Assembly: GCA_035477635.1 (NCBI GenBank)
Contig: DATIKK010000008.1
Coordinates: forward strand, 1 to 62,639
Direction of reading: 5' to 3'
Length of the DNA: 62,639 nt
Source of the DNA: Bacteroidales bacterium
Lineage (GTDB): Bacteria > Bacteroidota > Bacteroidia > Bacteroidales > UBA7960
Part shown: positions 6,527-55,743 of the stretch, in pieces
Layout of the letters: each line of letters starts with the position of its first letter
How positions within the stretch are numbered: the stretch's first letter is position 1
Notes under the pieces: model-generated
What the model was told of the DNA's origin: nothing
The model's input: only the letters and a program-made list of their open reading frames with translations
The model's database searches: none
Program-made: the position numbers and the translations under genes

Positions 6527-7711
6527 TTAAACAAATTGAATGTTTGTTTCTTTCAGGAATTTTTTTTCAAGCGATTGGACAATTTTTTTGATTACTGTAC
6601 GGCGGATTTCCAGCTCGACCGGCAGGTTCGGGTCTTGATGCGCTACATTGATTGCCGTTCCAACAACAAAAGTTATGCTGTCAACTTCGAGAAACATTTT
6701 CACTATCGAATCAGCAGGGCCCGTGCCTAAATCAGTTCTAGGGCTGAATTTATCCAAAATTTCGGAAACCTTGCTTAGGGTAAGAATCCCTTCAGTAACC
6801 AGGTCTATTCCTTCCATGTAAGACACCGGGGGGAGGTCGGGATCTTCAAAATTAAGGGAGTCTTTGATGGTGATGTTTAATTCGTGTCCAATAATGCTCG
6901 CAGTTGTTCCACCACAAATGATCTTCTTTCCCTCAAAATCCCTGACCATAGCAGCCAACTCCCGGTCTTTTTCCTTATCAAATGGCGGGCCTGAGCAAAG
7001 CAGAAGGTTGCGGGGTTCGCGCAGGTAAACCACCACTGCGCTGATATCGTCTTTTGCCTGATAATTATCGTTTGCGTGTGCTTTGTTTACAAGCCGGCTT
7101 GCTAGTTTATCTGCCGAAATCTCAAATTTTTCTTCCAAACTTTCGAGTAGCATGTGTGCCACATTGTCATGCCCCCAGCCCAGCATGAATTTCCCTTTTC
7201 CTAAGCCCGACTGAGTTACTCCATCGCTCATAAGTACGATACGATCTTCTTTTCGGGAGTTAAAAGTACAGACCATAATTTCTTTTCCTGCAGTGTTTTC
7301 TCTATCCTGCATTATATTGGTCCAGGTGAGTTCCAGCAGTTTTTTATCTCTCAAAACAATAGGGGTGGGATTGTCGTAGTTGATAATGGTGGTTTTGCCC
7401 GATTCTTCAATATCAATTATTGAAAAGGTAGCATAGCTAATTTTCCGTTCGCTGCACACAGGAAGGGTGTTCAGGATAATGTCAGCAATTTTGCGACTAT
7501 CTTTATGTTCTTTGGTAAAATTAAGTGCCATCGTTGCAGTGATGGTCGAAAGGAGATTTGCTTTAACTCCATGACCCATACCATCAGATAATACCACAAC
7601 AGTGCGTTTTTCTTCCTTTACCTTTTGCGAGGCAAACGAATCGCCACAAATGCGTTCGCCTGTATGATTCCTTTGGAATGACCCAACCTCAATATAAAAC
7701 TCATCTTTCAT
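6527..7711 (-). CDS. PP2C/SpoIIE-family Ser/Thr protein phosphatase with uncharacterised C-terminal domain
   Basis: PP2C/SpoIIE motifs ICGDSF, LSDGMGHGVKA and LMSDGV lie in the first ~230 aa. The remaining ~160 aa (KIICGGTTASIIGHEL...VGTAINVAHQD) matches no domain I can name. The ATG overlaps the stop of the upstream H-domain gene as ATGA (7708-7711). Confidence 0.85.
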   Translation of the reverse strand: MKDEFYIEVGSFQRNHTGERICGDSFASQKVKEEKRTVVVLSDGMGHGVKANLLSTITATMALNFTKEHKDSRKIADIILNTLPVCSERKISYATFSIIDIEESGKTTIINYDNPTPIVLRDKKLLELTWTNIMQDRENTAGKEIMVCTFNSRKEDRIVLMSDGVTQSGLGKGKFMLGWGHDNVAHMLLESLEEKFEISADKLASRLVNKAHANDNYQAKDDISAVVVYLREPRNLLLCSGPPFDKEKDRELAAMVRDFEGKKIICGGTTASIIGHELNITIKDSLNFEDPDLPPVSYMEGIDLVTEGILTLSKVSEILDKFSPRTDLGTGPADSIVKMFLEVDSITFVVGTAINVAHQDPNLPVELEIRRTVIKKIVQSLEKKFLKETNIQFV

Positions 7712-9567
7712 GAGCCTTGTTGTTTCTTAAGTTTTTGATAGGTTTCGATGATTGAGTTCAGCATCTTTTCGGTATTGCTGGCGCCCTCACCCAAGAGGAA
7801 GGCTATGTTTTGAACCATTTTCAGGTTCTCGTCAATAACTTCTGTTACCCGATTTATAACCTCTTCTTTGCGTACTTCGGCAATGTGCATATCGCGAAAA
7901 ACACCACCGACTATTTTATTGCTTTTTAAAGAATATATGCTTACATTAAGCAGGTTTTCACCATGGTTAACATCCTTTCCGATTACATTCTCATCTTGTT
8001 CAAGTACATAGGCAAACAGGTTATAAATATTATGGGGGAGAAGCGATTTTAAATCAGCTCCGACCATGCCAGGAATTACCTCGTTGATTACGGCAGCATC
8101 TTCACCCAGAATTTTTACGAAACTCTGATTCGACTCAATAATTTGTAATTTCTCGTTCACAATAACGGCTGCAGATGGTAGGTTTTGAAACAGGGCCGAA
8201 ATGGTTTGGACCTCTTGTTTTATCTTCTGGTTTTCAGCCTTCAGGCCTTTTTCAACATCATTCTGGGTATCGGTCAGCTTTTTCAGTTTATCATTATTGC
8301 TTTTTAGTACCCTTATGTACTCACTTTTGCTCCTAATGGAATAATTGAGGCACATTTCGGGTTTGCTAAGCCCCTGGCTGATTGAAATGGCAAAATCGCG
8401 GCAACTCCGGTATCCGCAAGCGCTGCACGATGGTCTCTTTTCCAGGTCTTTTCCGAGGCTTTTCATTATTTCCTCTATTCGATCATTGCCCGGTACCGGA
8501 AGTCTCTGATCGTCTTTAACAAAGGTTCGCGATAGGTCGAGTGCAGAATAGTTTCTCATTTCCTGTTCCCATCTTGGCCTGTCAAAATCTTTCAGGCGCT
8601 TATTGGCATAAGCAACCACCATCGACCTTCGAAGAAATTTGTTTGATGACACTGTTGTTCCGGGTCCCATCAGGCAGCCCTGATCGTAGAAAAGGCTGAA
8701 ATGCTTTTTCATGGAATCTGATTCGGCTGAGAACTCTTCAACTGCGTGAATCATATTCTCCTTACCACTTGCCGATACCACCGAGCCGTAAAGCAAATCA
8801 GTACTGACTCCCGATGCATATGTGAATCCGTTTGGCAATGGGTACAGAGACCCCAGATAGCCTATGGGTGGATCAAAATCAGAAAACTCGACCATACCTT
8901 CCTTTATGTTAAATCTTTCGAACAACTGGCGAAGTTCCCTGAAAGTGAGTACTGCATCAATTCGTCCATCATCCTCAAAAAGATGTGCATCATATTTGGC
9001 CGACAGGCAGGGGCCAAAGCAAACAATTTTCACATCCATCCCGTATGTTTTTCGAACCACCTTTGCAGTGGCAGTCATGGGAGTTACAATGGGGGCAAGG
9101 TTTTCGGTAAGTTCAGGATGAAATTTTTCTACAAAAGAAACCAGACTCGGACAATTAGCCGTCAGATAATACTTCCCTTTGAAGTTTTCCAACAACGTTT
9201 TGTATTTTTCGGCTACCAGATCAACTCCAAACGAAATTTCGACAACATAATCGAACCCAAGGGTTCGGATCATCTCAACAAATTTCCTGTAGTCGAGTAT
9301 ATCCGGAAATTCGCCGCTTATGGTTGGATCAACAATAGCTGCAACCTTTTGCTCCGAAGCCAGCAATTCGACCGCCCTGTCGAGGTCGCTACAATGCGAA
9401 ACCGCATTCGACCCGCACACCGAAAGGCAACTGCCACATCCTATACACCTGTCGTGGTTTACCACAGGCTTTCCGTCGTCGCGCGATGAAATGGCTTTTA
9501 CCGGGCAAATCCGCACGCAGGCATATGATTTATTGCAGGCATTCAGATCAATGTTAATTATTTGCAT
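7708..9567 (-). CDS. Sensory-type [FeFe]-hydrogenase-like protein (HydS/HfsB-like): ferredoxin + H-domain + extra 4Fe-4S motif + PAS
   Basis: There are two N-terminal 4Fe-4S motifs (CNKSYACVRICP, CIGCGSCLSVC). The H-domain carries variant motifs TANCP, GPCLSAKYD and QGCLMGPG. A CSACGYRSC-x16-C motif and a C-terminal PAS-like domain follow. The protein is clearly paralogous to the 14502..16550 product, with shared blocks SFVEK(F/H)HP, LDL(S/T)RTF and DDQR. Confidence 0.85.
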   Translation of the reverse strand: MQIINIDLNACNKSYACVRICPVKAISSRDDGKPVVNHDRCIGCGSCLSVCGSNAVSHCSDLDRAVELLASEQKVAAIVDPTISGEFPDILDYRKFVEMIRTLGFDYVVEISFGVDLVAEKYKTLLENFKGKYYLTANCPSLVSFVEKFHPELTENLAPIVTPMTATAKVVRKTYGMDVKIVCFGPCLSAKYDAHLFEDDGRIDAVLTFRELRQLFERFNIKEGMVEFSDFDPPIGYLGSLYPLPNGFTYASGVSTDLLYGSVVSASGKENMIHAVEEFSAESDSMKKHFSLFYDQGCLMGPGTTVSSNKFLRRSMVVAYANKRLKDFDRPRWEQEMRNYSALDLSRTFVKDDQRLPVPGNDRIEEIMKSLGKDLEKRPSCSACGYRSCRDFAISISQGLSKPEMCLNYSIRSKSEYIRVLKSNNDKLKKLTDTQNDVEKGLKAENQKIKQEVQTISALFQNLPSAAVIVNEKLQIIESNQSFVKILGEDAAVINEVIPGMVGADLKSLLPHNIYNLFAYVLEQDENVIGKDVNHGENLLNVSIYSLKSNKIVGGVFRDMHIAEVRKEEVINRVTEVIDENLKMVQNIAFLLGEGASNTEKMLNSIIETYQKLKKQQGS

Positions 9568-9615
9568 GTCTTTTACTCTTAAAGGATTTTCGTAAAAGGT
9601 GAGCGGAGTTTCTTT

Positions 9616-9876
9616 CTATTTGTTTTCAAAAAACGCATCTAAAAACTCGATAACATTTGATTCGGTAACTTGACAAAAAAGGTTGTCATTAATTTTGAGT
9701 AAAGGCCCTTCCACACATTTTCCCAAACAATGCGACCCCTTAAAAATAACTCTGCGGGTCCGACCTGTTTCACGAAGGTAATCCATTATCGCTGGCAGGG
9801 TTTTCTTATTGCCACGTGAAAAACAACTGCTACCCATGCATATTGTAATTTCGAGAACAGGCTCTTCCATTCGCAT
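9616..9876 (-). CDS. Thioredoxin-like [2Fe-2S] ferredoxin (NuoE C-terminal-domain type, HfsA-like position)
   Basis: The 86 aa protein has a C-x4-C-x31-C-x3-C pattern (CMGSSC ... CLGKC). It is the first gene of the minus-strand operon ending in the PP2C phosphatase. Confidence 0.7.
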   Translation of the reverse strand: MRMEEPVLEITICMGSSCFSRGNKKTLPAIMDYLRETGRTRRVIFKGSHCLGKCVEGPLLKINDNLFCQVTESNVIEFLDAFFENK

Positions 9877-10134
9877 AACATTAGATTACAGGGCCTTAAT
9901 GCATTTGAACACCAGAAATTATTTGCCAACCGCAAAGGAAAACCGCAATTTTTCAATCGGACTGGATTTCACCCGGCCTGGTATCAAATCAGGTATTTTT
10001 TTAACACTTCCAAATTTAATAAACCTTTTCAAATTACCTGGTTAATTAAATAACAACCAGCATGTATTCATTTATTGAGTAGCATGGCATCTGCTCCCTA
10101 ACGGTTTGTCCTAATCTGATTTATTGATTGTTGC

Positions 10135-10159
10135 ATGTGAAAACCTGTTGTTTTAACAT
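10135..10159. promoter_or_regulatory. 25-bp imperfect palindrome ATGTGAAAAC-N5-GTTTTAACAT in the divergent hydrogenase control region
   Basis: Nine of 10 arm positions are complementary. It lies 87-111 nt upstream of hydC and about 260 nt upstream of the divergent ferredoxin gene. Confidence 0.35.
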
Positions 10160-10224
10160 AAATAGATAGGTAAATTAAAAATTTATGATCAAAAAGAATG
10201 ATTTTTGTCTTAACTTTATTAATA

Positions 10225-10242
10225 TTGTGAAAAAAATTACAA
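10225..10242 (+). promoter_or_regulatory. Candidate Rex operator TTGTGAA-AAAA-ATTACAA, 3 nt upstream of the hydC start
   Basis: It matches the published Rex box architecture TTGTGAA-N4-TTCACAA at 12 of 14 half-site positions. A rex gene lies in the same gene string. Confidence 0.4.
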
Positions 10243-10245
10243 CTC

Positions 10246-10728
10246 GTGCCAACACAATCTTATGAGGAAATTCTTCAAAAATTTCCCAACAGGCAACCTG
10301 AGGACCTCATACAGCTTTTGCATGAAATACAGGATGAACATGGCTACCTATCGGCCGAAGCAATTGGTGTTGTTAGCCGGTTTTTAGACATTTCGGTCAA
10401 TAAAATTTATGGAGTTGCTACTTTTTACGACAATTTTCGTTTCGCTCCAGTTGGCAAATATCATATCAGGATATGCAACGGGACCGCTTGTAAAGTATCG
10501 GGTTCTACTATGCTTATCAGGGAATTGGAAAAGCAACTTGGAATTTCTTCAGAACAACCCGAAGATTCTTCATTGTTTACTTTAGAAATAGTTTCTTGTC
10601 TCGGGGCATGCGGATTGGCTCCAATAATTGAAGTGAACGGCGAATTTTATACAGAAATGACAATTCAGAAACTTCAATTACTTCTGCACCACCTTCAAAC
10701 AAAAGACCAGGCCTTATATGAAACCTGA
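10246..10728 (+). CDS. hydC: NuoE-like [2Fe-2S] subunit of trimeric [FeFe] hydrogenase (HydC)
   Basis: The 160 aa protein has the NuoE pattern CNGTAC ... CLGAC. The start is GTG and there is no upstream in-frame ATG. Its stop overlaps the hydB start by 11 nt. Confidence 0.85.
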   Translation: MPTQSYEEILQKFPNRQPEDLIQLLHEIQDEHGYLSAEAIGVVSRFLDISVNKIYGVATFYDNFRFAPVGKYHIRICNGTACKVSGSTMLIRELEKQLGISSEQPEDSSLFTLEIVSCLGACGLAPIIEVNGEFYTEMTIQKLQLLLHHLQTKDQALYET

Positions 10729-12670
10729 AGATACTGATAACATCAAACGTTTCCTGATATCGGAGGTACTCTTCTCGCCCGAGGCACAGGCCGATCCTTC
10801 GGTAGCCAGGGAACTGTCGTATATCTGCCGGGAAAGGGTTTTCAAACCTATGGTTTATGTAGGGATGGGCTCTTGTGGGGTCATTGCAGGCGCTGGAAAA
10901 GTATTTGAGACCATCCGTCAATATATCGACGACCAGGCATTAAATGTTGACCTGATTGCAGGAGGTTGCCTGGGATTTTGCAGCGCAGAACCGATAGTTG
11001 ATGTTCAGTTGCCAGGCAAGGCAAGGATTTCGTTTGGCAATGTAACTGTTGATAAGGTTTCGCACATACTCGATGAAGTTTTGAACCATTGCATGCCACA
11101 AAATGTTAATGTTTTAGGGCAATATGCCAGCGAAATCTTCCAAAACTGGGAGGGAATCCCTAACCTGTTTTCGCACTCTTTTTTTTCGTCACAAAACCGC
11201 ATTCTTATGGATAACTGCGGTTTAATTGACCCGGTTTCGATCCATGAATACATTGCAAGGGGTGGATACAAGGCCTTCGCAAAATCTATTTCTTTCCATA
11301 CTCCGGCTGCTGTTTGCCAAGAAGTTGAAGATAGCCTGCTGGCAGGTCGTGGAGGTGGAGCCTTTCCAGTTGGAAAAAAATGGAGACTTGTTCTTAATGC
11401 CGTTTCTGGTCAAAAATACTTCATTTGCAATGCAGTAGAAAGTGACCCGGGAAGTTATATGAACAGGGCCATCATCGAAAGCAACCCTCACCGCCTTATT
11501 GAGGCCATTCTTATTGGAGCCTATGCAATAGGTGCCACCAAAGCATTTGTCTTCATCCGTAAGGAGTTTAAATTGGCAACAGAACGGTTTGAAAAGGCAC
11601 TAAACAACGCCCGTGAATTTGGCCTGATAGGCCACCATATCCTGGAATCGGGAGTAAACATTGAAATAACGTTAATAAAAGGTGCAAGGGCATTTGTTTG
11701 CGGCGAAGAAACCGCCCTTATCAACTCTGTGGAAGGAAAAAGGGCCATGCCAGACTCCAAACCCCCATTCCCTTCTGAAAGAGGCCTTTGGAATAAACCT
11801 ACCATTGTAAACAATGTTGAAACCCTTTTTAATGTCCCTCTTATCCTTCAGAACGGAGCTGATTGGTACAAAGCCATTGGAACCGAAAAAAGCAAGGGAA
11901 CAAAACTCTTTACCCTTTCGGGAAAGGTTCAACGGTCTGGCATAATTGAAGTGCCAATGGGTATTTCATTCAGGGAGATTGTGAATAAAATTTCAGGCGG
12001 TACTCTGAATGGAAAAAGGTTTAAGGCCATATTCCTTGGAATAAACTCCGGAAACTTCATCACCGAAAATACCATTGATGTGCGGGTTGATTTCGACGAA
12101 ATGATGAATATTGGAGCAGCCTTGGGCAGTGGAGGATTTGTGGTGGTTGACGAAACGGCCTGTATGGTAGATATGGCAAAATATTTTACCGGATTTTTTC
12201 AAAGGGAAAGTTGTGGTAAATGCATTCCGTGCAGGGAAGGAACAGCCAGAATGCTTGAAATAATGCAGCTTACAACTAAAAGACCAGGTAAAAGAAACAA
12301 ATTGCATACACTTGAACGTTTCAAAGGGGTGATGCAATTGCGCACCATGGCTTCTGTCATTAAGGAAACTTCGCTATGCGCCCTTGGCAGATCGGCTCCA
12401 AATGCAATCATTAATACCCTGCAAAGTTTTAAATCCGAATTTGAAAGTCATCTTTACGACAGAAAATGCCCGGCTGGAGTTTGCAGCGACTTGCGGGTTT
12501 TTTCAATTGATGTTGAGAAATGCACCGGGTGCACAGCATGCTATAAAAAATGCCCTGTTGAAGCTATTATAGGGTCGCCAAGAGTACCTCATTTTGTTGT
12601 TGAAGACCGCTGCACAGGCTGCGGCTTTTGTTACGACGCCTGTAAGTTCAACGCTGTTATGATATATTAA
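10718..12670 (+). CDS. hydB: NuoF-like flavoprotein subunit of trimeric [FeFe] hydrogenase (HydB)
   Basis: The 650 aa protein has an N-terminal thioredoxin-like domain and the FMN/NADH site GRGGGAFPVGKKW. It has the N3-type cluster motif ESCGKCIPCREG and C-terminal ferredoxin motifs CTGCTACYKKCP and CTGCGFCYDAC. Confidence 0.9.
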   Translation: MKPEDTDNIKRFLISEVLFSPEAQADPSVARELSYICRERVFKPMVYVGMGSCGVIAGAGKVFETIRQYIDDQALNVDLIAGGCLGFCSAEPIVDVQLPGKARISFGNVTVDKVSHILDEVLNHCMPQNVNVLGQYASEIFQNWEGIPNLFSHSFFSSQNRILMDNCGLIDPVSIHEYIARGGYKAFAKSISFHTPAAVCQEVEDSLLAGRGGGAFPVGKKWRLVLNAVSGQKYFICNAVESDPGSYMNRAIIESNPHRLIEAILIGAYAIGATKAFVFIRKEFKLATERFEKALNNAREFGLIGHHILESGVNIEITLIKGARAFVCGEETALINSVEGKRAMPDSKPPFPSERGLWNKPTIVNNVETLFNVPLILQNGADWYKAIGTEKSKGTKLFTLSGKVQRSGIIEVPMGISFREIVNKISGGTLNGKRFKAIFLGINSGNFITENTIDVRVDFDEMMNIGAALGSGGFVVVDETACMVDMAKYFTGFFQRESCGKCIPCREGTARMLEIMQLTTKRPGKRNKLHTLERFKGVMQLRTMASVIKETSLCALGRSAPNAIINTLQSFKSEFESHLYDRKCPAGVCSDLRVFSIDVEKCTGCTACYKKCPVEAIIGSPRVPHFVVEDRCTGCGFCYDACKFNAVMIY

Positions 12671-12685
12671 ACCCTGACAGAAGTT

Positions 12686-14392
12686 ATGAAATTTTTTATA
12701 AACGTCGATAATAGTCAGGTCGAAGTACAGGAGGGGGAAACCTTGCTCAATGTGCTCAAACGTCAGGGCATCAGGGTGCCAACCCTTTGTCATATGGAAA
12801 AGTTTTCACCCACCGGAGCGTGCAGGCTTTGCGTAGTCGAAGTGGAGGGAAAAAGGGATTTGATTACATCATGCAGTTACCCGGTTGAAAGAAACATGAA
12901 GGTTTTTACCAATACCCAAAGGGTTGTCAGGGCAAGAAAAATAATTGTTGAAATGCTACTGTCGGCGCATCCTGACGATTGCCTTTATTGCGAACGTAAT
13001 GGTAATTGTGAGCTACAAGTGTTATCTGAACAAATGAATGTAAAGGAGCGCAGGTTTTTTTCAAAGAAAAAGCCTTTGTACCCCGACTATTCAAGTCCAA
13101 GTGTGTTGCGCGACCCTTCTAAATGTGTTTTATGCGGCCGATGTGTGCGGATATGTGATGAAACTCAAATGGTTTCGGCTATTGATTTTATTGCAAGAGG
13201 CACCAAAACGCATGTGAACAGCGCTTATAAAAAGGGACTCAATGTAGAAAGCTGCATTCATTGTGGTCAATGCATTATGGTTTGTCCTACCAGCGCACTT
13301 TCCGACCATCCACACCTTGAAAAGGTGCAGGCCGCCCTTGGTGATCCCAAAAAGCAGGTAATTTTTTTGGTTTCGCCTGCCGTTACCGCTTCTTTAGACG
13401 ACATTTTTGGAATGAAACCCGAAAAAGATGCAGGCAACTATGCATGCGCATGTCTTAAAAAAATTGGAGCTCAAAAAGTTTTCGATTTAGGCATTGCATC
13501 CGATATTAATGTAAGTATGGACGCGCAACTTTTGGCAAGAAACATTGAACAGGGGGTAACCGGACCACTTATCAATTCCTGCTGTCCCGGATTTGTTAAA
13601 TTTGCTGAAGAATTCAGGCCGGATGTCTTATCGAGGCTGGCTCCATACAGGTCGCCACAGCAAATTTTCGGCAGGTTGCTGAAAACACTTTATACAAAGC
13701 AGAATAATATACATCCTGATAACCTGTACACCGTAGCCATAATGCCCTGCGTTGGCAGCAAATTTGAGGCTTCCCGTCAGGAAATGACCCAAAAGGGAAT
13801 ATCTGAGATAGATGCAATACTTACCACACGGGAGTTTTTGCGCTTGATAAGGACATTCGGGCTGGATTATAAATATGTTGAACCAGCCCCCTTTGATGAA
13901 CCCTTTCGTAAGGCATCCTCGTTTTCATTTAAAATGAGCTATTCTGGCGGAAAAGCTGAGGCTGTTGCTGCTGAACTTTACGAAAGATTGGGAAAATCCG
14001 GGCAAGAAACTTTTAAATTTCAATCTGTAAAAAAAGTTGGAGGAATAAGGGAAGCCAAAATGGTTGCTGGAGATAGAACCTTTGGTTTTGCCTGGGTCAG
14101 TGGAATTGCCAATGCATGCGCCTACCTTGACCAACTTTTTGAAGAGAAGCGGATGGATGTTCATTATGTTGAAGTAATGGCTTGCCAAAATGGCTGTCTG
14201 GGCGGCGGTGGACAACCAATATTCTTTGGCAATGATAAATTTCAGAACCGTAAAAAAACTTGCCAGGAATTAGAAAAATTTTCCCACTGTGTTCTGCCAA
14301 GCCATAATCAACAATTATGGCAGGTCTTGAAGGAAATGATGAAGGAGGCCGGAACAGAAGATTTACATGGTTATTTTCATCTTTTAAAATGA
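12686..14392 (+). CDS. hydA: [FeFe] hydrogenase catalytic subunit HydA with canonical H-cluster motifs
   Basis: The 568 aa protein has an N-terminal 2Fe-2S motif (C-x10-C-x2-C) and a His-ligated cluster motif HPDDCLYCERNGNC. It has two CxxCxxCxxxCP motifs. The H-cluster motifs are NSCCPGF (L1), MPCVGSKFE (L2) and EVMACQNGCLGGGGQP (L3). Confidence 0.93.
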   Translation: MKFFINVDNSQVEVQEGETLLNVLKRQGIRVPTLCHMEKFSPTGACRLCVVEVEGKRDLITSCSYPVERNMKVFTNTQRVVRARKIIVEMLLSAHPDDCLYCERNGNCELQVLSEQMNVKERRFFSKKKPLYPDYSSPSVLRDPSKCVLCGRCVRICDETQMVSAIDFIARGTKTHVNSAYKKGLNVESCIHCGQCIMVCPTSALSDHPHLEKVQAALGDPKKQVIFLVSPAVTASLDDIFGMKPEKDAGNYACACLKKIGAQKVFDLGIASDINVSMDAQLLARNIEQGVTGPLINSCCPGFVKFAEEFRPDVLSRLAPYRSPQQIFGRLLKTLYTKQNNIHPDNLYTVAIMPCVGSKFEASRQEMTQKGISEIDAILTTREFLRLIRTFGLDYKYVEPAPFDEPFRKASSFSFKMSYSGGKAEAVAAELYERLGKSGQETFKFQSVKKVGGIREAKMVAGDRTFGFAWVSGIANACAYLDQLFEEKRMDVHYVEVMACQNGCLGGGGQPIFFGNDKFQNRKKTCQELEKFSHCVLPSHNQQLWQVLKEMMKEAGTEDLHGYFHLLK

Positions 14393-14438
14393 CATTGAGT
14401 ATTGGGCATACAACTTGGGTCATTGAGCATGGGGCATA
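14393..14438 (+). repeat. Two 18-nt direct repeats (CATTGAGTATTGGGCATA / CATTGAGCATGGGGCATA) spaced 28 nt start-to-start
   Basis: Read directly from the sequence. Repeat 1 starts the base after the hydA stop codon. The two copies match at 16 of 18 positions. Confidence 0.8.
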
Positions 14439-14501
14439 GGGCGATATATTTGAGGTTCAATTCTCTAAAAGTTTTAAAAGTTAAAGTATATCTTTAATCA
14501 G

Positions 14502-16550: not shown

Positions 16551-16561
16551 TAAATTGGAAG

Positions 16562-16960
16562 ATGCAACAAAGTAAAAAAATTACAATTCTGATCGTAGAT
16601 GACGATTTCGACTACCTTTTCCAGTTAAAAGCCGGTTTACTGGAAATGGGGTTTGAAGTTATTACAGCCGAAGGGCAAAAGGAAGCAGAGAAAATTCTTG
16701 AACGGCTTAAACCCGATATGGCAATCTTAGACCTTATGATGGAAAGCCATGATTCAGGATTTATTTTAAGCCATAGAATCAAAGACCTTTATCCCGATGT
16801 GCCCATTATTATAGTATCGGCAGTAACGGCCGAAACCGGTTTCGATTTTGATGTAACAAGTCTTGAAGAACAAAGCTGGATAAAAGCCGATTTGTTCCTC
16901 GATAAGGGTATCAGGAAGGATCAATTACAGCGAGAAATTTTTAAACTACTAAAACTTTAG
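16562..16960 (+). CDS. Single-domain response regulator (receiver only)
   Basis: The 132 aa protein has the receiver signature LIVDDD, phospho-acceptor context AILDLMM, and a conserved Lys in LDKG. It has no output domain. It lies 11 nt after the preceding kinase gene. Confidence 0.85.
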   Translation: MQQSKKITILIVDDDFDYLFQLKAGLLEMGFEVITAEGQKEAEKILERLKPDMAILDLMMESHDSGFILSHRIKDLYPDVPIIIVSAVTAETGFDFDVTSLEEQSWIKADLFLDKGIRKDQLQREIFKLLKL

Positions 16961-16962
16961 GC

Positions 16963-18087
16963 ATGGCAAAACTTGCCATAATGGTTGTTGATGATGAGCC
17001 CGGAATCAGAAGCGGGGTTACACGAATCCTCGAAAATTTCTCGGTTAGCTTTCCTTTTATGGATGAAGACTTCGATTTTGAAGTAACTGAGGTTTCGACT
17101 GGAGAGGAGGCCATCAACCAATTGTTGAACAGGCAATTCGATATTGTGCTGCTCGATAATAAACTACCCGGTATTCAAGGCGTTGACGTTTTAGATTTTA
17201 TCTCCAACAAGCAAATTGAAGTAATTGTGGTTATGATTACTTCATACGCTTCGCTTGATCTGGCAGTAAGAGCAACCCGGCAGGGCGCCTTTGATTTTGT
17301 TCCAAAGCCTTTTACCCCAAAGGAGCTTAGGGCCAACCTCGAAAATATTACAAAGCATCTCTTTTTGAAAAGAATGACCCAAAAAATGAACCTCGAAGGA
17401 AGGCATGCCAGATTCCAATTCCTTTCGGTATTGTCGCACGAACTCAAAGCTCCAATAAACGCAATTGAGGGTTATCTTAAAATGATGCAGGAAAAGAAAG
17501 CCGGAGAATACATTTCAGGTTATATGGAAATGATTGATCGCGCTTTAATGAGGTTGCAGAGTATGCGGAATCTCATTCTTGATATGCTGGACCTGACGCG
17601 GATCGAAAGTGGAAAAAAGAGCAGGTTTGTTGAACCAATTTTGCTTTGTGAAATTGCCCAACAGTGTATTGACACATTTCAGCCATTGAGCATCCAGAAG
17701 GGAATTGAAATTTATCTGAACTGTGTGCAGGAAATAATGGTTAACTCCGATAAAAAAGAAATGGAAATTGTTTTTAATAACCTAATCAGCAACGCAATAA
17801 AATACAATAAAGAAGGGGGAAGGGTAGATGTGAACCTGGGTGTTGAGCAAAATAATGCCGTAATTAAGGTAACCGATACAGGCATAGGCATGAAACCCGA
17901 TGACCTGGGTAAACTCTTCGAAGATTTTGTGAGGATAAAATCTGAAGAAACCAGGCATATAAGCGGAAGCGGGCTTGGCTTGTCAATTGTAAAAAAAATC
18001 CTCGATTTTTATGGAGCAATTATTCAAGTAGATAGCACTCCGGGCGAAGGCAGCAGCTTTGTAATTTATTTTCCAATGAAAAATTAA
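16963..18087 (+). CDS. Receiver-histidine kinase fusion (N-terminal REC, HisKA, HATPase)
   Basis: The 374 aa protein has a receiver domain (VVDDEP, VLLDNKLPG, VPKPF). It has the H-box LSHELKAPINAI and the boxes LISNAIKYN, DTGIGM and GSGLGLSI. It has no transmembrane or sensor domain. Confidence 0.88.
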   Translation: MAKLAIMVVDDEPGIRSGVTRILENFSVSFPFMDEDFDFEVTEVSTGEEAINQLLNRQFDIVLLDNKLPGIQGVDVLDFISNKQIEVIVVMITSYASLDLAVRATRQGAFDFVPKPFTPKELRANLENITKHLFLKRMTQKMNLEGRHARFQFLSVLSHELKAPINAIEGYLKMMQEKKAGEYISGYMEMIDRALMRLQSMRNLILDMLDLTRIESGKKSRFVEPILLCEIAQQCIDTFQPLSIQKGIEIYLNCVQEIMVNSDKKEMEIVFNNLISNAIKYNKEGGRVDVNLGVEQNNAVIKVTDTGIGMKPDDLGKLFEDFVRIKSEETRHISGSGLGLSIVKKILDFYGAIIQVDSTPGEGSSFVIYFPMKN

Positions 18088-18097
18088 TAACCGATTT

Positions 18098-18733
18098 ATG
18101 ATAAACAATAAATTAAAAGGCTTACCTGGTAGAACCGTTGAGAGGTTGAGTCAATACCGTCGGTTGCTTTACAACCTGGTCAACATAGATAAGGCTCATG
18201 TATTCTCCCATGAGTTGGCAACCATGATGAATCTTACTTCAGTGCAAGTGCGACGTGATCTTATGCTTATAGGTTATTCGGGGAGTCAAAGTAAAGGATA
18301 TCAGGTAAAAAGCCTTATTTCACTAATCAGCAATATAATTGACAGCGACCAAGGCCAACGTGTAGCAATTGCAGGAATGGGGAATCTTGGCAGGGCTATT
18401 TCGAGTTATTTTTCAGGCAAACGCGAAAAACTAATAATCGTGGCAGCTTTTGATAACGACCTTCAAAAGACCGATCGTATGATTGCCGGAATTCCTTGTT
18501 ATCATATTAATAAAATCAAAGAGGTGGTTAAGCTCGAAAACATAAATATTGCAATTCTCACCGTTGCCCCCGAGGCGGCCTACGATGTAGCAAAGATGTT
18601 TCTCGATGCTGGGGTAAAGGGACTTCTAAATTACACTTCTGTACCCCTTACTGTGCCTGAAGGCGTACACCTCGAAGAATACGATATTGTAACATCGCTC
18701 GAAAAACTCGCTTTCCTTGTGAAGCATCATTAG
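18098..18733 (+). CDS. rex: Redox-sensing transcriptional repressor Rex (NADH/NAD+ sensor)
   Basis: The 211 aa protein has an N-terminal winged-helix block ERLSQYRRLL...QVRRDL. It has the Rossmann motif AGMGNLGRA and the conserved blocks FDND and LLNYTSVPL. It lies 10 nt after the receiver-kinase gene. Confidence 0.88.
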   Translation: MINNKLKGLPGRTVERLSQYRRLLYNLVNIDKAHVFSHELATMMNLTSVQVRRDLMLIGYSGSQSKGYQVKSLISLISNIIDSDQGQRVAIAGMGNLGRAISSYFSGKREKLIIVAAFDNDLQKTDRMIAGIPCYHINKIKEVVKLENINIAILTVAPEAAYDVAKMFLDAGVKGLLNYTSVPLTVPEGVHLEEYDIVTSLEKLAFLVKHH

Positions 18734-18762
18734 ATTCTCCTGACCTTTTTTTTATAAAACCC

Positions 18763-19686
18763 ATGAACGTTTTTTACAGCATTGCCGCAACTGAAGGTAA
18801 AATACCTAATGCTGTTGTTACCACAGGGTCGTTTGATGGCGTACATGTTGGTCACAAAGCCATTATCAACCGGCTAAACTACCTGGCCGCACAATCTGGT
18901 GGACAATCGGTATTGATTACGTTCCATCCTCACCCCCGCAAAGTATTATATCCTGATCAGACCGACCTGAAACTTATTCATTCGCAGGAAGAAAAAATTC
19001 AACTCCTTGGCAAAACTGGCCTTCAGAACCTCATTATACTTCCGTTTTCCGCCGAATTTTCCAAAACATCCTCATACGATTTTGTCAGCAAAATATTAGT
19101 TGAAAAGCTTCAGGTCAAGGTAGTAGTTGTGGGCATGAACCACCACTTTGGGCACAACCGTCAGGGTGACTTTACATATTTATATAACCTCGGTTCAACA
19201 TTGGGTTTTAGGGTAGAGGAGATTTCGCTGCGCGATATCGAAAATGAAATTGTAAGCTCTACAAAGATTCGGAAAGCACTGGCTGAGGGAAACATACAAA
19301 GGGCAAATGCTTACCTGGATCATCAATATATCATTAGGGGCTACCTGCATCAAAATTTTAAACAAGAACTGCTCCCGCAAATCTCCTTCTTATCAATTGA
19401 AATTGAAGAGGAAGAAAAGTTAATTCCCCCGCCGGCCTTTTATGCAACGAGCTTGGTTTGCGAAAAAATGGTAAATAAATCAGTTACTCTGGTTGCTACT
19501 TCCGATGGGAAAGAAAAACCCGAGGTGTTGACTCATATAATTTCCGGCGAGCATAATTTGTTTAGTAATAAGGGAACCATTCTTTTTTACAAGAAATTGA
19601 TGGACTTGACCTGCCCATTAGACAGTGTTATTGACCTCCGGCAATTTGAACAGGCCAAAGAAATGGCAGAGGAGCTTCTGTATTAA
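18763..19686 (+). CDS. ribF: Bifunctional riboflavin kinase / FMN adenylyltransferase
   Basis: The 307 aa protein has the N-terminal nucleotidyltransferase motif GSFDGVHVGHK, the SSTKIR block and a C-terminal riboflavin kinase domain. Confidence 0.9.
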   Translation: MNVFYSIAATEGKIPNAVVTTGSFDGVHVGHKAIINRLNYLAAQSGGQSVLITFHPHPRKVLYPDQTDLKLIHSQEEKIQLLGKTGLQNLIILPFSAEFSKTSSYDFVSKILVEKLQVKVVVVGMNHHFGHNRQGDFTYLYNLGSTLGFRVEEISLRDIENEIVSSTKIRKALAEGNIQRANAYLDHQYIIRGYLHQNFKQELLPQISFLSIEIEEEEKLIPPPAFYATSLVCEKMVNKSVTLVATSDGKEKPEVLTHIISGEHNLFSNKGTILFYKKLMDLTCPLDSVIDLRQFEQAKEMAEELLY

Positions 19687-19697
19687 GCAATAAAAAA

Positions 19698-20477
19698 ATG
19701 TCAGGCTCTACACCTATGCGTATTACTTTTCTTGGTACAGGTACCTCAACGGGTGTGCCTGTTGTTGCCTGCAATTGCCCTGTTTGCCGGAGTGCCGATC
19801 AACGTGATAGCAGGTTGCGGACTTCGGTTCTGGTCGAAATAAACGGAAATAATTTTGTTATTGACTGTGGGCCTGACTTTCGCTACCAGATGATTCGCGA
19901 AAGAGTTGACGACATTGAAGCCATATTGTTCACACACGGTCATCGTGATCATATTGCCGGTATTGACGACATAAGAGGTTTTAATTATGTACTTAATAAA
20001 ACTATTAACCTTTACGCAAGTCAGGAGGTAATTAACGACATCAACAAGGAATTTCCATACATACTTAATGAAAAGAGGTTTTTTGGCGCTCCCCAGCTAA
20101 AGTTTCATGTAATTGAAAACAAGCCATTCAGTATTGGTTCCATCGATGTTTTACCCATTGAAGTGTTGCACTACAAGTTGCCGGTATTGGGTTTTCGCAT
20201 AGGTGGGTTCACCTACATTACCGATGCCAGTTTTATATCTGAAAACGAAATCCCTAAGGCTATTGGCTCTGATGTCCTTGTTATTAATGCATTGCGCAAA
20301 TCTAAGCATATTTCACACTTTTCGCTCGAAGAAGCTCTCGCTGTGATTAACCAGCTTAAGCCTGGCCGCGCCTATATTACCCATTTGAGCCACTTCATTG
20401 GTTTCCATCAAATTGTGCAGAAAGGATTGCCTGCCAATGTTTTTCTCGCCTACGATGGACTGAAAGTGGAAATTTGA
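19698..20477 (+). CDS. MBL-fold metallo-hydrolase (PhnP-like)
   Basis: The 259 aa protein has the metallo-beta-lactamase motif HGHRDH and an N-terminal Cys cluster CNCPVC, as in PhnP-type phosphodiesterases. Confidence 0.75.
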   Translation: MSGSTPMRITFLGTGTSTGVPVVACNCPVCRSADQRDSRLRTSVLVEINGNNFVIDCGPDFRYQMIRERVDDIEAILFTHGHRDHIAGIDDIRGFNYVLNKTINLYASQEVINDINKEFPYILNEKRFFGAPQLKFHVIENKPFSIGSIDVLPIEVLHYKLPVLGFRIGGFTYITDASFISENEIPKAIGSDVLVINALRKSKHISHFSLEEALAVINQLKPGRAYITHLSHFIGFHQIVQKGLPANVFLAYDGLKVEI

Positions 20478-20566
20478 TACCGCCAAATCTATTTAGGTAT
20501 TTCTGGTATTTAAACCTTTTTTTGCAGAAAATAATGTCAATCTGATTTTCGACCATTAGGTTTACC

Positions 20567-20574
20567 TACCTTTG
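20567..20574 (+). promoter_or_regulatory. Bacteroidota-type -7 promoter box TACCTTTG upstream of hydG
   Basis: It is an exact TAnnTTTG match, 25 nt upstream of the hydG ATG. I saw no clear -33 TTTG. Confidence 0.4.
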
Positions 20575-20598
20575 TAAGACAATTACATTAACCGAAAC

Positions 20599-22029
20599 AT
20601 GATTTACAACCCTGAAAAATACAGGCTTAAAGATGAACGGATGAAGCCCTTTATAGATCCGGAAGAACTATTGGGTTTTATCACAAATGTAAAAGCCGAA
20701 AAAACGCGGGTCAGGGAAGTAATTCAGGCATCACTTGACAAAAAACGCTTGTCGGTTGAAGAAACTGCAGTTCTTCTTAACACCGACGATCCTGATTTGA
20801 TAGAAGAAATCAAGGAAGGAGCCAGAAAGCTGAAAGAGAAGATATATGGCGAACGGATCGTGCTTTTTGCTCCCTTGTACGTGGGCGACCTTTGCACAAA
20901 TAATTGTCAGTATTGCGGCTTCAGGTCGGCAAATACAGGTATAAAACGGATAACACTTTCTAAGGATCAACTAATTGCCGAAACCCGCGCTCTTATTGAT
21001 CATGGTCATAAACGTTTAATCCTCGTTTATGGTGAACATCCAAAATATTCGGCCGATTTTATTGCCGAAACTGTTCGGATTGTTTACGGTGTAAGGCATG
21101 TCAACGGTGAAATCCGCCGTGTAAACATCAATGCAGCCCCTTTCGACATTCCTGGTTTTAGGGTGATAAAAGATGCCCGTATAGGTACGTATCAGATATT
21201 TCAGGAAACCTATCATCAGCCTACCTATGCCAAGGTTCATCTCGGAGGGATAAAGCAAAATTATGACTATAGGTTAACTGCCCTTGACCGTGCTCAAGAA
21301 GCCGGAATTGACGATGTCGGCATTGGGGCGCTTTTTGGCTTGTACGACTGGCGCTTTGAAGTATTGGGGCTGGTGCGCCATGTCAATCACCTGGAAGCGG
21401 TTTATAACGTCGGGCCGCATACTATTTCATTTCCAAGAATTCAAAATGCACTTTCGTTCGACATAGAAAAATGTAATCTGGTGAAGGATGATGAATTTGT
21501 AAGACTTGTTGCAATCCTTCGCCTTGCAGTACCCTATACTGGTATGATCCTCACCGCGAGGGAACCTTCGCACATCCGCGACCAGGTGCTGCGCTTTGGG
21601 GTATCACAAATTGATGGGGGAACAAATCTTGAATTGGGAGGTTACTCCAAAGCTAAGAAGCAAGGAGAACAGGATCTTACTATGGAACAATTTCAGATTA
21701 ACGACACCAGGTCGTTGAACGAAATTATGGACGAACTGATTAAAACCGGATATATACCCTCTTTTTGCACGGCATGTTATCGACTCGACCGAACAGGGGA
21801 ACATTTCATGGAATTTACCGTACCTGGTTTTATTAAACGTTTCTGTTCACCAAATGCCTTGCTTACGCTTGCTGAATACCTTGAAGATTATGCTCCGCCT
21901 CAAACTAAAGAAAGCGGGTACCGCCTTATTGACCAAAAGATTTCAGAACTTTCGGAAACACAACCAGTCGAAAGTCTAAAAGAGAAACTTAACCAGGTAA
22001 AACAAGGCAAAAGGGACTTATATTTTTAA
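20599..22029 (+). CDS. hydG: [FeFe] hydrogenase H-cluster radical SAM maturase HydG
   Basis: The 476 aa protein has the radical SAM motif CTNNCQYCGF. Its C-terminal C-x2-C-x22-C motif (CTACYRLDRTGEHFMEFTVPGFIKRFC) distinguishes HydG from ThiH. Confidence 0.9.
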   Translation: MIYNPEKYRLKDERMKPFIDPEELLGFITNVKAEKTRVREVIQASLDKKRLSVEETAVLLNTDDPDLIEEIKEGARKLKEKIYGERIVLFAPLYVGDLCTNNCQYCGFRSANTGIKRITLSKDQLIAETRALIDHGHKRLILVYGEHPKYSADFIAETVRIVYGVRHVNGEIRRVNINAAPFDIPGFRVIKDARIGTYQIFQETYHQPTYAKVHLGGIKQNYDYRLTALDRAQEAGIDDVGIGALFGLYDWRFEVLGLVRHVNHLEAVYNVGPHTISFPRIQNALSFDIEKCNLVKDDEFVRLVAILRLAVPYTGMILTAREPSHIRDQVLRFGVSQIDGGTNLELGGYSKAKKQGEQDLTMEQFQINDTRSLNEIMDELIKTGYIPSFCTACYRLDRTGEHFMEFTVPGFIKRFCSPNALLTLAEYLEDYAPPQTKESGYRLIDQKISELSETQPVESLKEKLNQVKQGKRDLYF

Positions 22030-22044
22030 ACCAGTATAAAATGC

Positions 22045-22082
22045 AACGAGCATGATTCGTTAAACACAAATACGGATGAAAA
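22045..22082 (+). repeat. Conserved leader motif copy 1 (AACGAGCATGATTCG-TT-AAACACA-AAT-ACGGATGAAAA), ending in the start codon of the first TM1266-like gene
   Basis: It is near-identical to 39304-39340. A 15-nt block, a 7-nt block and an 11-nt block are each identical. Confidence 0.75.
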
Positions 22083-22351
22083 ACAACCTCATACTTGGCA
22101 TACTTGTTTTTGACCGGATAAAAGAAGCCGGGCGCACCCAAAAGGTACTGTCCACGCATGCAGGTATTATAAAAACGCGCCTGGGCTTTCACGAACTTTC
22201 GGATTCTGTTTGTAGCAGAGTAGGCACAATTTTGCTTGTTCTCGAAGGTGACCAGGCTGGCTTGGAAGCTCTTACAGACGATTTGTCGAAAATCGGAGGA
22301 ATAGAAGTAAAAGAGTTTACCTTCGAATTTTATACTAAAAAATTTACCTGA
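22076..22351 (+). CDS. TM1266-like small putative iron-only hydrogenase system regulator (NikR C-terminal/ACT-like), paralogue a
   Basis: The 91 aa protein has the pattern LGILV-DR...IKTRLG-HEL...ILLVLEG. It lies immediately downstream of hydG. Family assignment is by size, sequence pattern and context. Confidence 0.6.
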   Translation: MKNNLILGILVFDRIKEAGRTQKVLSTHAGIIKTRLGFHELSDSVCSRVGTILLVLEGDQAGLEALTDDLSKIGGIEVKEFTFEFYTKKFT

Positions 22352-22352
22352 T

Positions 22353-22604
22353 ATGGCTGAATTAAGAATTCTTGGCATCTTAGTATCGCAACGAAGCAAG
22401 GCTGCAGTTTCGGTTCAGCAAATACTAACAAAGTACGGTGGTTGCATTAAAACCCGACTTGGCTTGCATGAGCTGGATAAGCCCGACTGCGAGGATTGCG
22501 GTCTGATTATTCTGGAACTGTCGTGTGATGAGGAGGAATGTAACAGACTCGAAAATGAATTGTTGGAAGTATCGGGAGTCAAATTGCAAAAAATGGTATT
22601 TTAG
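22353..22604 (+). CDS. TM1266-like small putative regulator, paralogue b (Cys-rich)
   Basis: The 83 aa protein is alignable to paralogue a (LGILVSQR...IKTRLGLHEL...IILEL). It has extra cysteines (GGC, CEDC, SCDEEEC). Its start is 1 nt after the stop of paralogue a. Confidence 0.6.
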   Translation: MAELRILGILVSQRSKAAVSVQQILTKYGGCIKTRLGLHELDKPDCEDCGLIILELSCDEEECNRLENELLEVSGVKLQKMVF

Positions 22605-22642
22605 CGATATTTTTGAAATTTTCTTTTGAACAGGCAGAACTT

Positions 22643-23059
22643 ATGGCAAAACTGGTACATTTTTCTGAGGCGGCATCATTGGCACTGCATGCAATGGTAA
22701 TTATTGCCCAAAACAACATTCATGTCAACGTAAATTATTTATCGGAGGAAATGGGAGCCTCGCGAAATCACTTGGCCAAGGTGCTACAACAGTTGGTAAA
22801 GTTCAACTATCTTCGCTCGGTCAGGGGCCCGAATGGTGGATTTGTTCTCAACAAACCAGCTCATGAAATTTCTATTCTTAACATTTATGAAGCTATTGAG
22901 GGAAAAATTGATACTCCTGAATGTCCCCTCGACCGGCCTATATGTCCTTTTGATAAATGCCTGATGGGTGGCCTTATCAAGGATGTTACTCTTCAATTCA
23001 AGGCCTATTTTAATGAGCAAACGCTGCAAAGTTACCTCCCTCCCCGGGTCGGTTCTTAG
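22643..23059 (+). CDS. Rrf2-family transcriptional regulator with three clustered Cys (probable Fe-S sensor)
   Basis: The Rrf2 helix-turn-helix block is LSEEMGASRNHLAKVLQQLVKFNYLRSVRGPNGGFVL, with a Cys cluster ECPLDRPICPFDKC. The track start at 22613 is TTG, so the ATG at 22643 (MAKLVHFSEAA) is preferred. Confidence 0.85.
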   Translation: MAKLVHFSEAASLALHAMVIIAQNNIHVNVNYLSEEMGASRNHLAKVLQQLVKFNYLRSVRGPNGGFVLNKPAHEISILNIYEAIEGKIDTPECPLDRPICPFDKCLMGGLIKDVTLQFKAYFNEQTLQSYLPPRVGS

Positions 23060-52544: not shown

Positions 52545-52576
52545 TGCTTGGTTATTACTCTATTAATTATTGGTTT

Positions 52577-53371: not shown

Positions 53372-53379
53372 AGGTAAAT

Positions 53380-54714: not shown

Positions 54715-54743
54715 AACCGGTTCATTTTAGGGCTAGTCTTTAA

Positions 54744-55715: not shown

Positions 55716-55743
55716 ATGCTTTCAAATTAATTTTTAGAGATAA

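Follow-up and report, generated by a model that had tools for sequence, protein, structure and literature searches.

A conserved Bacteroidales locus combining an electron-bifurcating-type [FeFe] hydrogenase with two H-domain paralogues and a predicted Rex operator

Gene order and its conservation

A contig from a Bacteroidales metagenome-assembled genome (DATIKK010000008.1 of GCA_035477635.1), of which we analysed 62,639 nt and which we refer to as the window, carries a [FeFe] hydrogenase locus of 16 genes between positions 6527 and 23059. We took coordinates and gaps from an open reading frame (ORF) map and domains from Pfam and NCBIfam scans, and these recovered all 16 genes listed in an earlier note written from the bare sequence, at the same positions and with the same gaps. 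The plus-strand genes start with hydC (10246–10728, with a GTG start), which encodes a NuoE-like [2Fe-2S] subunit (PF01257, E 3.8e-46), followed by hydB (10718–12670) for a NuoF-like, FMN- and NADH-binding subunit and hydA (12686–14392) for an M3-type [FeFe] hydrogenase large subunit. After a gap of 109 nt comes the gene for HydS-HK (14502–16550), in which an H-domain is fused to HisKA and HATPase domains, and then, at gaps of 11, 2, 10, 29 and 11 nt, those for a single-domain receiver (REC, PF00072, 16562–16960), a REC-HisKA-HATPase protein (REC-HK, 16963–18087), Rex (18098–18733), a RibF-like FAD synthetase (18763–19686) and an MBL-fold hydrolase (19698–20477). A further 121 nt separate this string from hydG (20599–22029; TIGR03955, score 501 against a cut-off of 312), two TM1266/CPF_0552-like genes (22076–22351 and 22353–22604) and rrf2 (22613–23059), all on the same strand. 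The regulators named in the earlier note are thereby accounted for, as one rex, two TM1266-like genes and one rrf2, with Rex scoring 199 bits against a cut-off of 126 (NF003995). Diverging from hydC across a 369-nt intergenic control region (9877–10245), the minus strand encodes a small thioredoxin-like [2Fe-2S] protein (fdx, 9616–9876), a second H-domain protein, HydS-PAS (7708–9567, with Fe_hyd_lg_C and FeS domains), and a SpoIIE/RsbX-type PP2C Ser phosphatase (6527–7711; PF07228, E 1.6e-16), whose start overlaps the HydS-PAS gene stop by 4 nt.

The synteny survey that the earlier note had called for showed that this layout is conserved in related genomes. A metagenome scan with a HydS-PAS alignment returned 80 loci at 47–87% identity, and 39 of the 44 loci with at least 9 kb of upstream flank carry the full arrangement of hydC-hydB-hydA, HydS-HK, REC, REC-HK and rex divergent from fdx, HydS-PAS and PP2C; two others lack REC-HK only and three lack the block, so that 39 of 41 block-carrying loci have REC-HK. 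PP2C follows HydS-PAS in 53/59 loci, and hydC is divergent from HydS-PAS in 58/62. Four long contigs found by exact-protein look-ups (L081, L083, L085 and L086) have the same genes, order and strands within the fetched flanks, the order hydG, TM1266-like pair and rrf2 is repeated in L081 and L083, and rex is always followed by ribF in the loci compared. A core of hydCBA, HydS-HK, REC and REC-HK without the divergent operon was found in another Bacteroidales lineage, in Ignavibacteriota and in Kuenenia; the contig scan behind these comparisons used search patterns from the kinase domain and gave loci L001–L005, the other 75 of its 80 loci being unrelated kinases. The locus type is abundant in Bacteroidales of anaerobic sediments and digesters. 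The probability that the genes are neighbours by chance, with no functional link, is accordingly close to nil: order and strands are kept at 47–87% protein identity in the 39 complete loci, the core module is kept across three phyla, and the genes are tightly spaced, with gaps of 2–29 nt or overlaps. We therefore regard chance adjacency as ruled out by the synteny data.

Parts of the block also occur separately or in other combinations. In four loci (L155, L158, L161 and L162), rex, with ribF and/or hydG where the contig reaches, diverges from HydS-PAS, with fdx and PP2C beside HydS-PAS where recovered; these loci lack the hydCBA/sensor-kinase block, which suggests that the block was assembled from separable modules. 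About ten distant loci (L117, L118, L133, L143, L148–L152 and L163) have a second hydC/hydA/hydB-like set after PP2C on the opposite strand, with two hydB-like ORFs. In Ignavibacteriota the signalling genes lie between two hydrogenase operons. Specifically, at L002:12001–19441 and L004:11975–19400 the sensor kinase is followed by a REC, a REC-PAS-kinase, a second REC and a second hydrogenase set, whose HydB is short (398 aa) and without ferredoxin domains and whose HydA has a small-subunit-like tail. The 473-aa ORF that follows this second set was considered as an NtrC-type regulator and rejected, as Pfam identifies it as a membrane histidine kinase.

The hydrogenase and its two H-domain paralogues

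HydA, HydB and HydC align over their full length to subunits of solved electron-bifurcating enzymes, and by these alignments HydCBA is a Bfu-type (group A3) [FeFe] hydrogenase, with a predicted link to NADH and ferredoxin. The best PDB match of HydA is the bifurcating HydA1 of T. kivui (8a6t_A, E 3.5e-123), and its N-terminus is of the M3 type, with 2Fe-2S, His-ligated 4Fe-4S and 2×4Fe-4S domains by Pfam. Residues 46–649 of HydB align to BfuB subunits (9n5u_B, 7t2r_B, 7q4v_B, 8a6t_B and 7p5h_B); the protein ends in a 2×[4Fe-4S] domain and begins with a 2Fe-2S-like domain that scores weakly (E 0.017). HydC matches 8a6t_C and 7p5h_C.

HydA keeps the four H-cluster cysteines (C300, C355, C499 and C503; its numbering equals CpI numbering across residues 209–412) and the proton-relay C299, within the motifs NSCCPGF, MPCVGSKFE and EVMACQNGCLGGGGQP. 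These motifs had at first been called canonical, a description that holds for the cysteines but not for second-sphere and proton-pathway residues (K358S, E279D, E282L, R286N and S319A); T297N and W303F are further substitutions. HydA also falls below the NCBIfam cut-offs for group A (NF040763, 542 against 765; TIGR02512, 334 against 406). Positions 358, 282, 286 and 319 are considered conserved among prototypical group A enzymes, and the HydA of the same module in Ignavibacteriota and Kuenenia is canonical. We counted residues across the 120 closest homologues, which are 51–100% identical and, where named, come from Bacteroidales or Bacteroidota metagenome-assembled genomes. The four ligands are Cys in all 120, position 299 is Cys in 112, Asp in 7 and Asn in 1, and position 279 is Glu in 117 (Asp in the window). 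By comparison, Glu282 is found in 5 and Arg286 in 66, position 319 is Ser in 67 and Ala in 50, and position 358 is Lys in 71, Asn in 44 and Glu, Ala or Ser in a few, with Ser in the window alone. Median pairwise identity over 36 complete loci is lowest for HydA (45%) among the proteins compared, and in 627 of 630 locus pairs HydS-HK is the better conserved of the two; judged by these identities, HydA evolves faster than any other large protein of the block. In the distant Bacteroidales lineage without the divergent sensor operon, HydA (L001:8001–9818) has the motifs ITACPAW (C299A), TPCMAMKFE and EVMTCPGGCIHGAGLPF, which look like those of a sensory enzyme.

Drift of this kind could mean that HydABC is slow or altered and that the block acts mainly as an H2 and NADH sensing hub that controls other pathways (another hydrogenase, for instance, or branches of fermentation) and not its own expression. 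Besides the residue counts at positions 358, 282, 319 and 286, the lower conservation of HydA relative to HydS-HK and the C299A change in L001, such a role would fit the lack of a DNA-binding output in the locus and the four loci that keep rex-ribF-hydG and fdx-HydS-PAS-PP2C without hydCBA. We nevertheless think it very unlikely: the four cysteine ligands are 100% conserved, with C299 and E279 retained in 112 and 117 of the 120 homologues, HydB and HydC are intact, full-length Bfu subunits, and the Rex operator predicted at hydC (see below) fits an NADH-disposal enzyme.

As the earlier note had proposed, this one HydABC lies between two group-C-like H-domain paralogues. HydS-HK and HydS-PAS are 40% identical over 421 aa, comprising the N-terminal ferredoxin domain, the H-domain and an extra cluster, and each is 25% identical to HydA. 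HydS-HK is built from 2×[4Fe-4S], the H-domain, a Cx2Cx4Cx16C cluster, a coiled coil, HisKA and HATPase; Pfam places HisKA and HATPase_c directly after the coiled coil and finds no C-terminal PAS domain. Its ferredoxin motifs are of the full CxxCxxCxxxC form, and its H-cluster motifs read STSCP in L1 (C299S), GPCIAKKGE in L2 (M353G, with K358 kept) and LLCCNGCINGPG in L3. Among its homologues C144, C192, C299 and C302, the cluster cysteines C387, C390, C395 and C412, and the H-box His H459 are invariant, C298 is near-invariant (at least 90% of sequences), and the architecture is common to more than 100 clusters at 90% identity. The 2×[4Fe-4S] domain, the Cys ligands, the replaced C299 and M353 and the Cx2Cx4Cx16C cluster place HydS-HK in group C (M2f/HydS). 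The adjacent REC, whose receiver residues DD/D/S/K can be recognised in its translation, shows the highest conservation of the block proteins compared (median pairwise identity 64%), and REC-HK is a kinase regulated by a receiver, lacking both sensor and output domains.

HydS-PAS has the same general plan, with a 2×[4Fe-4S]-like N-terminus, a degenerate H-domain, the Cx2Cx4Cx16C cluster (C381, C384, C389 and C406), a coiled coil, a PAS fold and a helical hairpin. Its motifs are TANCP in L1 (C299N), GPCLSAK in L2 (M353G, K358A) and FYDQGCLMGPG in L3. It keeps C300, C355 and C503, and the position of C499 is occupied by Tyr in 15/15 close and 78/78 metagenomic homologues, with N, D, H or C as the adjoining residue. 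In the window and its close clade, the first ferredoxin motif has Ser for the second Cys (CxxSxxCxxxC). Published sensory enzymes keep their cluster cysteines (PMC10055695, PMC8163306), so HydS-PAS departs from the definition of that family, and from its sequence a role as H2 sensor is doubtful because the fourth H-cluster cysteine is absent. Of the two H2 sensors proposed for the locus, HydS-HK, whose ligands are complete, remains the likely one; to treat HydS-PAS as an equal sensor is unsafe, given the lost C499 and the Ser in the ferredoxin motif.

These features can also be read to mean that the H-domain proteins do not sense H2 but respond to redox state or electron flux, or are accessory 'T' subunits that dock on HydABC; they would read the reduction of the Fe-S chain (ferredoxin/NADH poise) into phosphorylation. 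The loss of C499 in all 78 metagenomic homologues beside a residue that varies among N, D, H and C, the Ser in the ferredoxin motif and the Cx2Cx4Cx16C cluster that both paralogues keep beside the output module would all fit this reading, and PMC11406978 treats the proteins as BfuT subunits and states that P1–P3 motifs are hardly found in some group C1 proteins. We judge this unlikely, if deserving of real weight, since HydS-HK retains every H-cluster ligand together with K358, its C299 and M353 substitutions fall at the same positions as in Thermotoga HydS, which binds a functional H-cluster, and hydG is kept in the block.

The two output chemistries that had been read from the gene order, a His-kinase on HydS-HK and a PAS domain followed by an adjacent PP2C on the side of HydS-PAS, were both recovered, the PAS domain being detectable only at the level of predicted fold. 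Its Pfam match is below threshold (E 0.005–0.014), a PDB profile search with the C-terminal region of HydS-PAS found nothing, and neither did hhalign between the HydS-PAS alignment and the PAS region of a neighbouring hybrid kinase. An AlphaFold2 (AF2) model of the whole protein was too poor to use, with a predicted local distance difference test (pLDDT) score of 49. The AF2 model of residues 405–619 (62 sequences) predicts a β2-α4-β3 unit across residues 464–559, with pLDDT of about 77–91 per 10-residue block, and a Foldseek search of the PDB with it gave 93 hits at E ≤ 1e-3, with E down to 6e-6. Among the matches listed, nearly all are PAS domains or PAS-containing sensors, including CitA PASc (TM 0.77), Aer2, FixL and NifL.

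In the phosphatase, the PP2C domain occupies aa 1–230, with PDB matches to SpoIIE and RsbX; the C-terminal domain (aa 230–394, 165 aa; 6527–7030) is conserved and gave no Pfam hit at E ≤ 5 and no PDB sequence match. Of a partner-switching set, the PP2C domain is present, and the annotated ORFs of the locus include no STAS or RsbW-like gene. The protein encoded by fdx resembles the C-terminal half of NuoE/HydC (PF01257, E 6e-10, profile positions 67–143); fdx is present in loci of 62–87% identity and absent from many at about 50–55%. The hybrid kinase is an optional neighbour downstream of the phosphatase, with the Pfam domains PAS-PAS-HisKA-HATPase-REC (3288–6254, minus strand), which follows PP2C in L081, L083, L085 and about 12 of the 80 metagenomic loci and is absent in L086 and others. 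Its C-terminus (3288–3800) has a weak Hpt-like segment (E 4e-4, below cut-off); if the Hpt is real, the protein would be an unorthodox phosphorelay kinase able to feed orphan receivers.

Control region and proposed regulation

Rex is an NADH/NAD+-sensing repressor, and the control region contains a Rex-like operator, box A (TTGTGAAAAAAATTACAA, that is TTGTGAA-N4-ATTACAA; 10225–10242, plus strand), which ends 3 nt before the hydC GTG. Box A is the only site in the 62.6 kb within two mismatches of the Rex consensus TTGTGAANNNNTTCACAA (PMC5317091), and it is identical in L081 and L087 although the surrounding spacer has diverged. Of 60 unique regions upstream of hydC, 49 contain the relaxed pattern TTGT[GT]AA-N4-[AT]TNNCA, a density of 3.4 per kb compared with 0.020 per kb elsewhere in the same loci (about 170-fold), and distant relatives have two Rex-like sites 17 nt apart upstream of hydC. 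No Rex box within two mismatches was found upstream of hydC in the Ignavibacteriota and Kuenenia loci. A Rex that scores above its curated cut-off and a predicted operator of the TTGTGAANNNNTTCACAA type at the hydC promoter together point to a Rex regulon, which supports the link to an NADH/NAD+ sensor drawn in the earlier note.

A second Rex-like site, box B (TTGTTATTTAATTAACCA, 10039–10056, minus strand), lies in a candidate promoter of the fdx operon, where it is followed by GAAAAGGTTT and a Bacteroidetes-type -7 box (TAAATTTG, 10018..10011, minus strand). This layout of box, GAAAAGGTTT and TAnnTTTG is repeated in relatives, and in L087 the box is at the same position as box B. Another element, TGTTATTTAGATTAA[AT]T, recurs in 17 control regions of the 62–80% identity group, where its position, about 175 nt upstream of hydC, is fixed; it is seen in L081, L085, L086 and L088–L112 and is absent from the window and from L087.

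Bacteroidetes-type -7 boxes, which have a background frequency of 0.55 per kb per strand, were also found in both of the wider gaps of the plus-strand genes. One (TATATTTG, 14445–14452, plus strand) lies 57 nt upstream of HydS-HK in the hydA-hydS gap, where it could serve as an internal promoter peculiar to the window. It cannot be general, because the hydA-hydS gap is at most 15 nt in several relatives (15 nt in L081 and an overlap in L086, with 55 nt in L083). The other (TACCTTTG, 20567–20574, plus strand) lies in the MBL-hydG gap, 32 nt before hydG, and the two boxes suggest that in this genome the sensor string and hydG-rrf2 each have a promoter of their own.

The RibF-like protein has a Pfam match limited to the FAD-synthetase half and scores below every NCBIfam RibF cut-off; ribD (2142–3188) lies just outside the block, as it does in L085 and L086, so that a link to flavin supply recurs. 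The Rrf2 protein carries a Cx6Cx4C triad that would suit an Fe-S cluster, and its gene probably starts at an internal ATG at 22643 rather than at the listed TTG, because orthologues are 136–141 aa long and the TTG start gives 148 aa. We did not find hydE or hydF among the large ORFs of the window, its small ORFs having been scanned incompletely, and an Rfam search detected no RNA family anywhere in the window. Farther along, at 50766–56493 on the minus strand, are genes for an acyl-CoA dehydrogenase, a CCG-domain protein, a 4Fe-4S protein and ETF-alpha, in what looks like an Etf-linked redox module separate from the hydrogenase locus.

Taking these observations together, we consider it probable, with ample room for doubt, that the locus is a conserved Bacteroidales version of a 'BfuABC plus BfuT' regulon with the following Rex, HydS-HK and HydS-PAS/PP2C branches. 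At low NADH/NAD+, Rex would repress both divergent operons, hydCBA with the sensor string on one side and fdx-HydS-PAS-PP2C on the other; rising NADH would lift this repression and allow H2 production. This step builds on the position and conservation of the operator and on known Rex biology, with Rex proposed as the factor on both boxes from the similarity of the motif. The sensing of H2, or of the redox state of the H-cluster, would likely fall to HydS-HK, whose H-cluster site is complete but has no proton-relay Cys and which carries an extra C-terminal [4Fe-4S]. Reduction of the cluster could be passed through the coiled coil to HisKA/HATPase and alter autophosphorylation, and the phosphate may then reach the adjacent REC and REC-HK, which would relay or buffer it toward an output encoded elsewhere, as the locus contains no DNA-binding receiver. 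In some genomes the neighbouring PAS-kinase-REC-Hpt hybrid may join this His-Asp network. HydS-PAS and PP2C would form a second branch with Ser-phosphate chemistry, analogous to R. albus HydS and Thermoanaerobacterium HfsBC, in which HydS-PAS may report Fe-S or electron-flux status instead of H2, because its H-domain lacks one cluster cysteine. HydG, the TM1266-like pair, Rrf2 and RibF would supply or tune the H-cluster, Fe-S and flavin cofactors. Domain content, ligand conservation, synteny and operator conservation are observed directly; the binding of Rex, H2 as the signal, the direction of phosphotransfer and any effect on hydCBA, including its control by the sensors, are steps that we infer.

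Several points weigh against this proposal. The invariant Tyr at position 499 of HydS-PAS has been described above, and the catalytic competence of HydA is, from its sequence, uncertain because of K358S together with the loss of E282, R286 and S319. The annotated ORFs of the locus include no DNA-binding receiver, STAS protein or Ser kinase, and since neither an output regulator nor a Ser kinase or STAS partner was found nearby, both signalling branches may have targets other than hydCBA. The operator core TGTGA-N6-T(C/T)ACA could also fit CRP/FNR-type regulators, and the right half of the operator is degenerate (ATTACAA, ATATCAA and TTAGCA). Finally, a sigma-70 promoter and terminator scan, a method not built for Bacteroidetes, gave the same counts as shuffled controls and no operon boundaries, and is uninformative on operon structure for that reason.

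A reading that goes further than the regulon proposed here would take the regulatory layer to be under tighter constraint than the enzyme, and the locus to be a multi-input hub that senses H2 through HydS-HK, Fe-S or electron flux through the three-Cys HydS-PAS and PP2C, and NADH through Rex, with its main targets outside the locus and HydABC serving as a slow, tuned valve or even forming part of the sensor. We regard this as speculative and quite unlikely.

To our knowledge, no signalling output is known for any group C 'sensory' [FeFe] hydrogenase. The locus type described here pairs both proposed output chemistries, His-Asp and Ser-phosphate, with one hydrogenase and a predicted Rex operator. 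For enzymology it offers two leads, the natural drift of HydA at K358, E282 and S319 and the three-Cys variant of HydS-PAS.

Comparison with known systems

The closest published arrangement is that of PMC11406978 (2024), which describes BfuABC sub-types with a BfuT subunit carrying a PAS or His-kinase domain. Sub-type V BfuABC with the His-kinase BfuT shares with the window the order hydC-hydB-hydA followed by an H-domain-His-kinase gene, and HydS-HK matches this BfuT type. In a two-bfuT variant from Bacteroidota, reported for Perlabentimonas gracilis, Tenuifilum thalassicum and Williamwhitmania taraxaci, a first bfuT lies upstream of bfuC and a second one downstream of bfuA. This variant shares in addition the second, divergent H-domain gene upstream of hydC and the host order Bacteroidales, and its significance is called "unclear" in that paper. 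We compared these isolates by their published description, and the available text does not mention a REC/REC-kinase pair, a Rex operator, a PP2C partner, a missing C499 or a non-canonical HydA. Other reports touch on parts of the layout: a group C1 gene adjoins Hnd in Petrimonas mucosa (PMC7768429), and HydDB lists kinase-linked (C1) and phosphatase-linked (C3) classes as putative. Subgroup labels conflict between sources, the Bacteroidales neighbour being C1 in PMC7768429, and both the PAS and the His-kinase BfuT being C3 in PMC11406978.

In Thermotoga maritima, HydS (M2f, group C; PMC8163306, PMC10055695) likewise has an N-terminal 2×[4Fe-4S] domain, a replaced C299, Gly at M353 and the Cx2Cx4Cx16C cluster, and is encoded beside a bifurcating HydABC. 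HydS-HK differs from it in having HisKA-HATPase in place of PAS and Ser rather than Ala at position 299, whereas HydS-PAS shares the PAS fold and is without C499 and K358. The minus-strand operon resembles Ruminococcus albus HydS and Thermoanaerobacterium hfsABCD, for which a signalling role was proposed in PMC5707799: these share a PAS-bearing H-domain protein co-encoded with a PP2C-type phosphatase and a link to Rex and fermentation balance. In contrast to hfsABCD, the operon here has no gene for an HfsD-like Ser kinase (HATPase); the PP2C has the extra 165-aa domain and the host is a Gram-negative member of the Bacteroidales.

The Ralstonia [NiFe] system HoxBC-HoxJ-HoxA follows a shared logic, in which a low-activity hydrogenase module controls a histidine kinase, but its metal centre and fold are unrelated, and Ralstonia has the DNA-binding response regulator HoxA, with none identified here. 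Caldithrix abyssi (Cabys_3675-3679) also encodes rex together with a bifurcating hydrogenase, with a predicted Rex site before rex-hydCBA (PMC5317091), and serves as the reference for the sub-type V layout in PMC11406978. Its rex is upstream, as in the Kuenenia locus L003, whereas here rex lies downstream of the kinases, and the Caldithrix cluster has no second sensor/PP2C operon.

Set beside these reports, the window is another member of a published, uncharacterised arrangement, and the genomic layout itself is not new, because PMC11406978, PMC7768429 and PMC5317091 describe related ones. The earlier note had presented the locus as an uncharacterised system and left prior description open; the first part agrees with the "unclear" significance stated in PMC11406978, and the second is answered by the core layout already given there. 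The three cultured isolates that carry the locus type according to that paper offer a practical system for testing the joint sensing of H2 partial pressure and NADH load in fermenters. What the present analysis adds to the known systems is the breadth of conservation, the predicted operators, the conserved REC/REC-kinase pair, the missing HydS-PAS cysteine and the drifting active-site environment of HydA.

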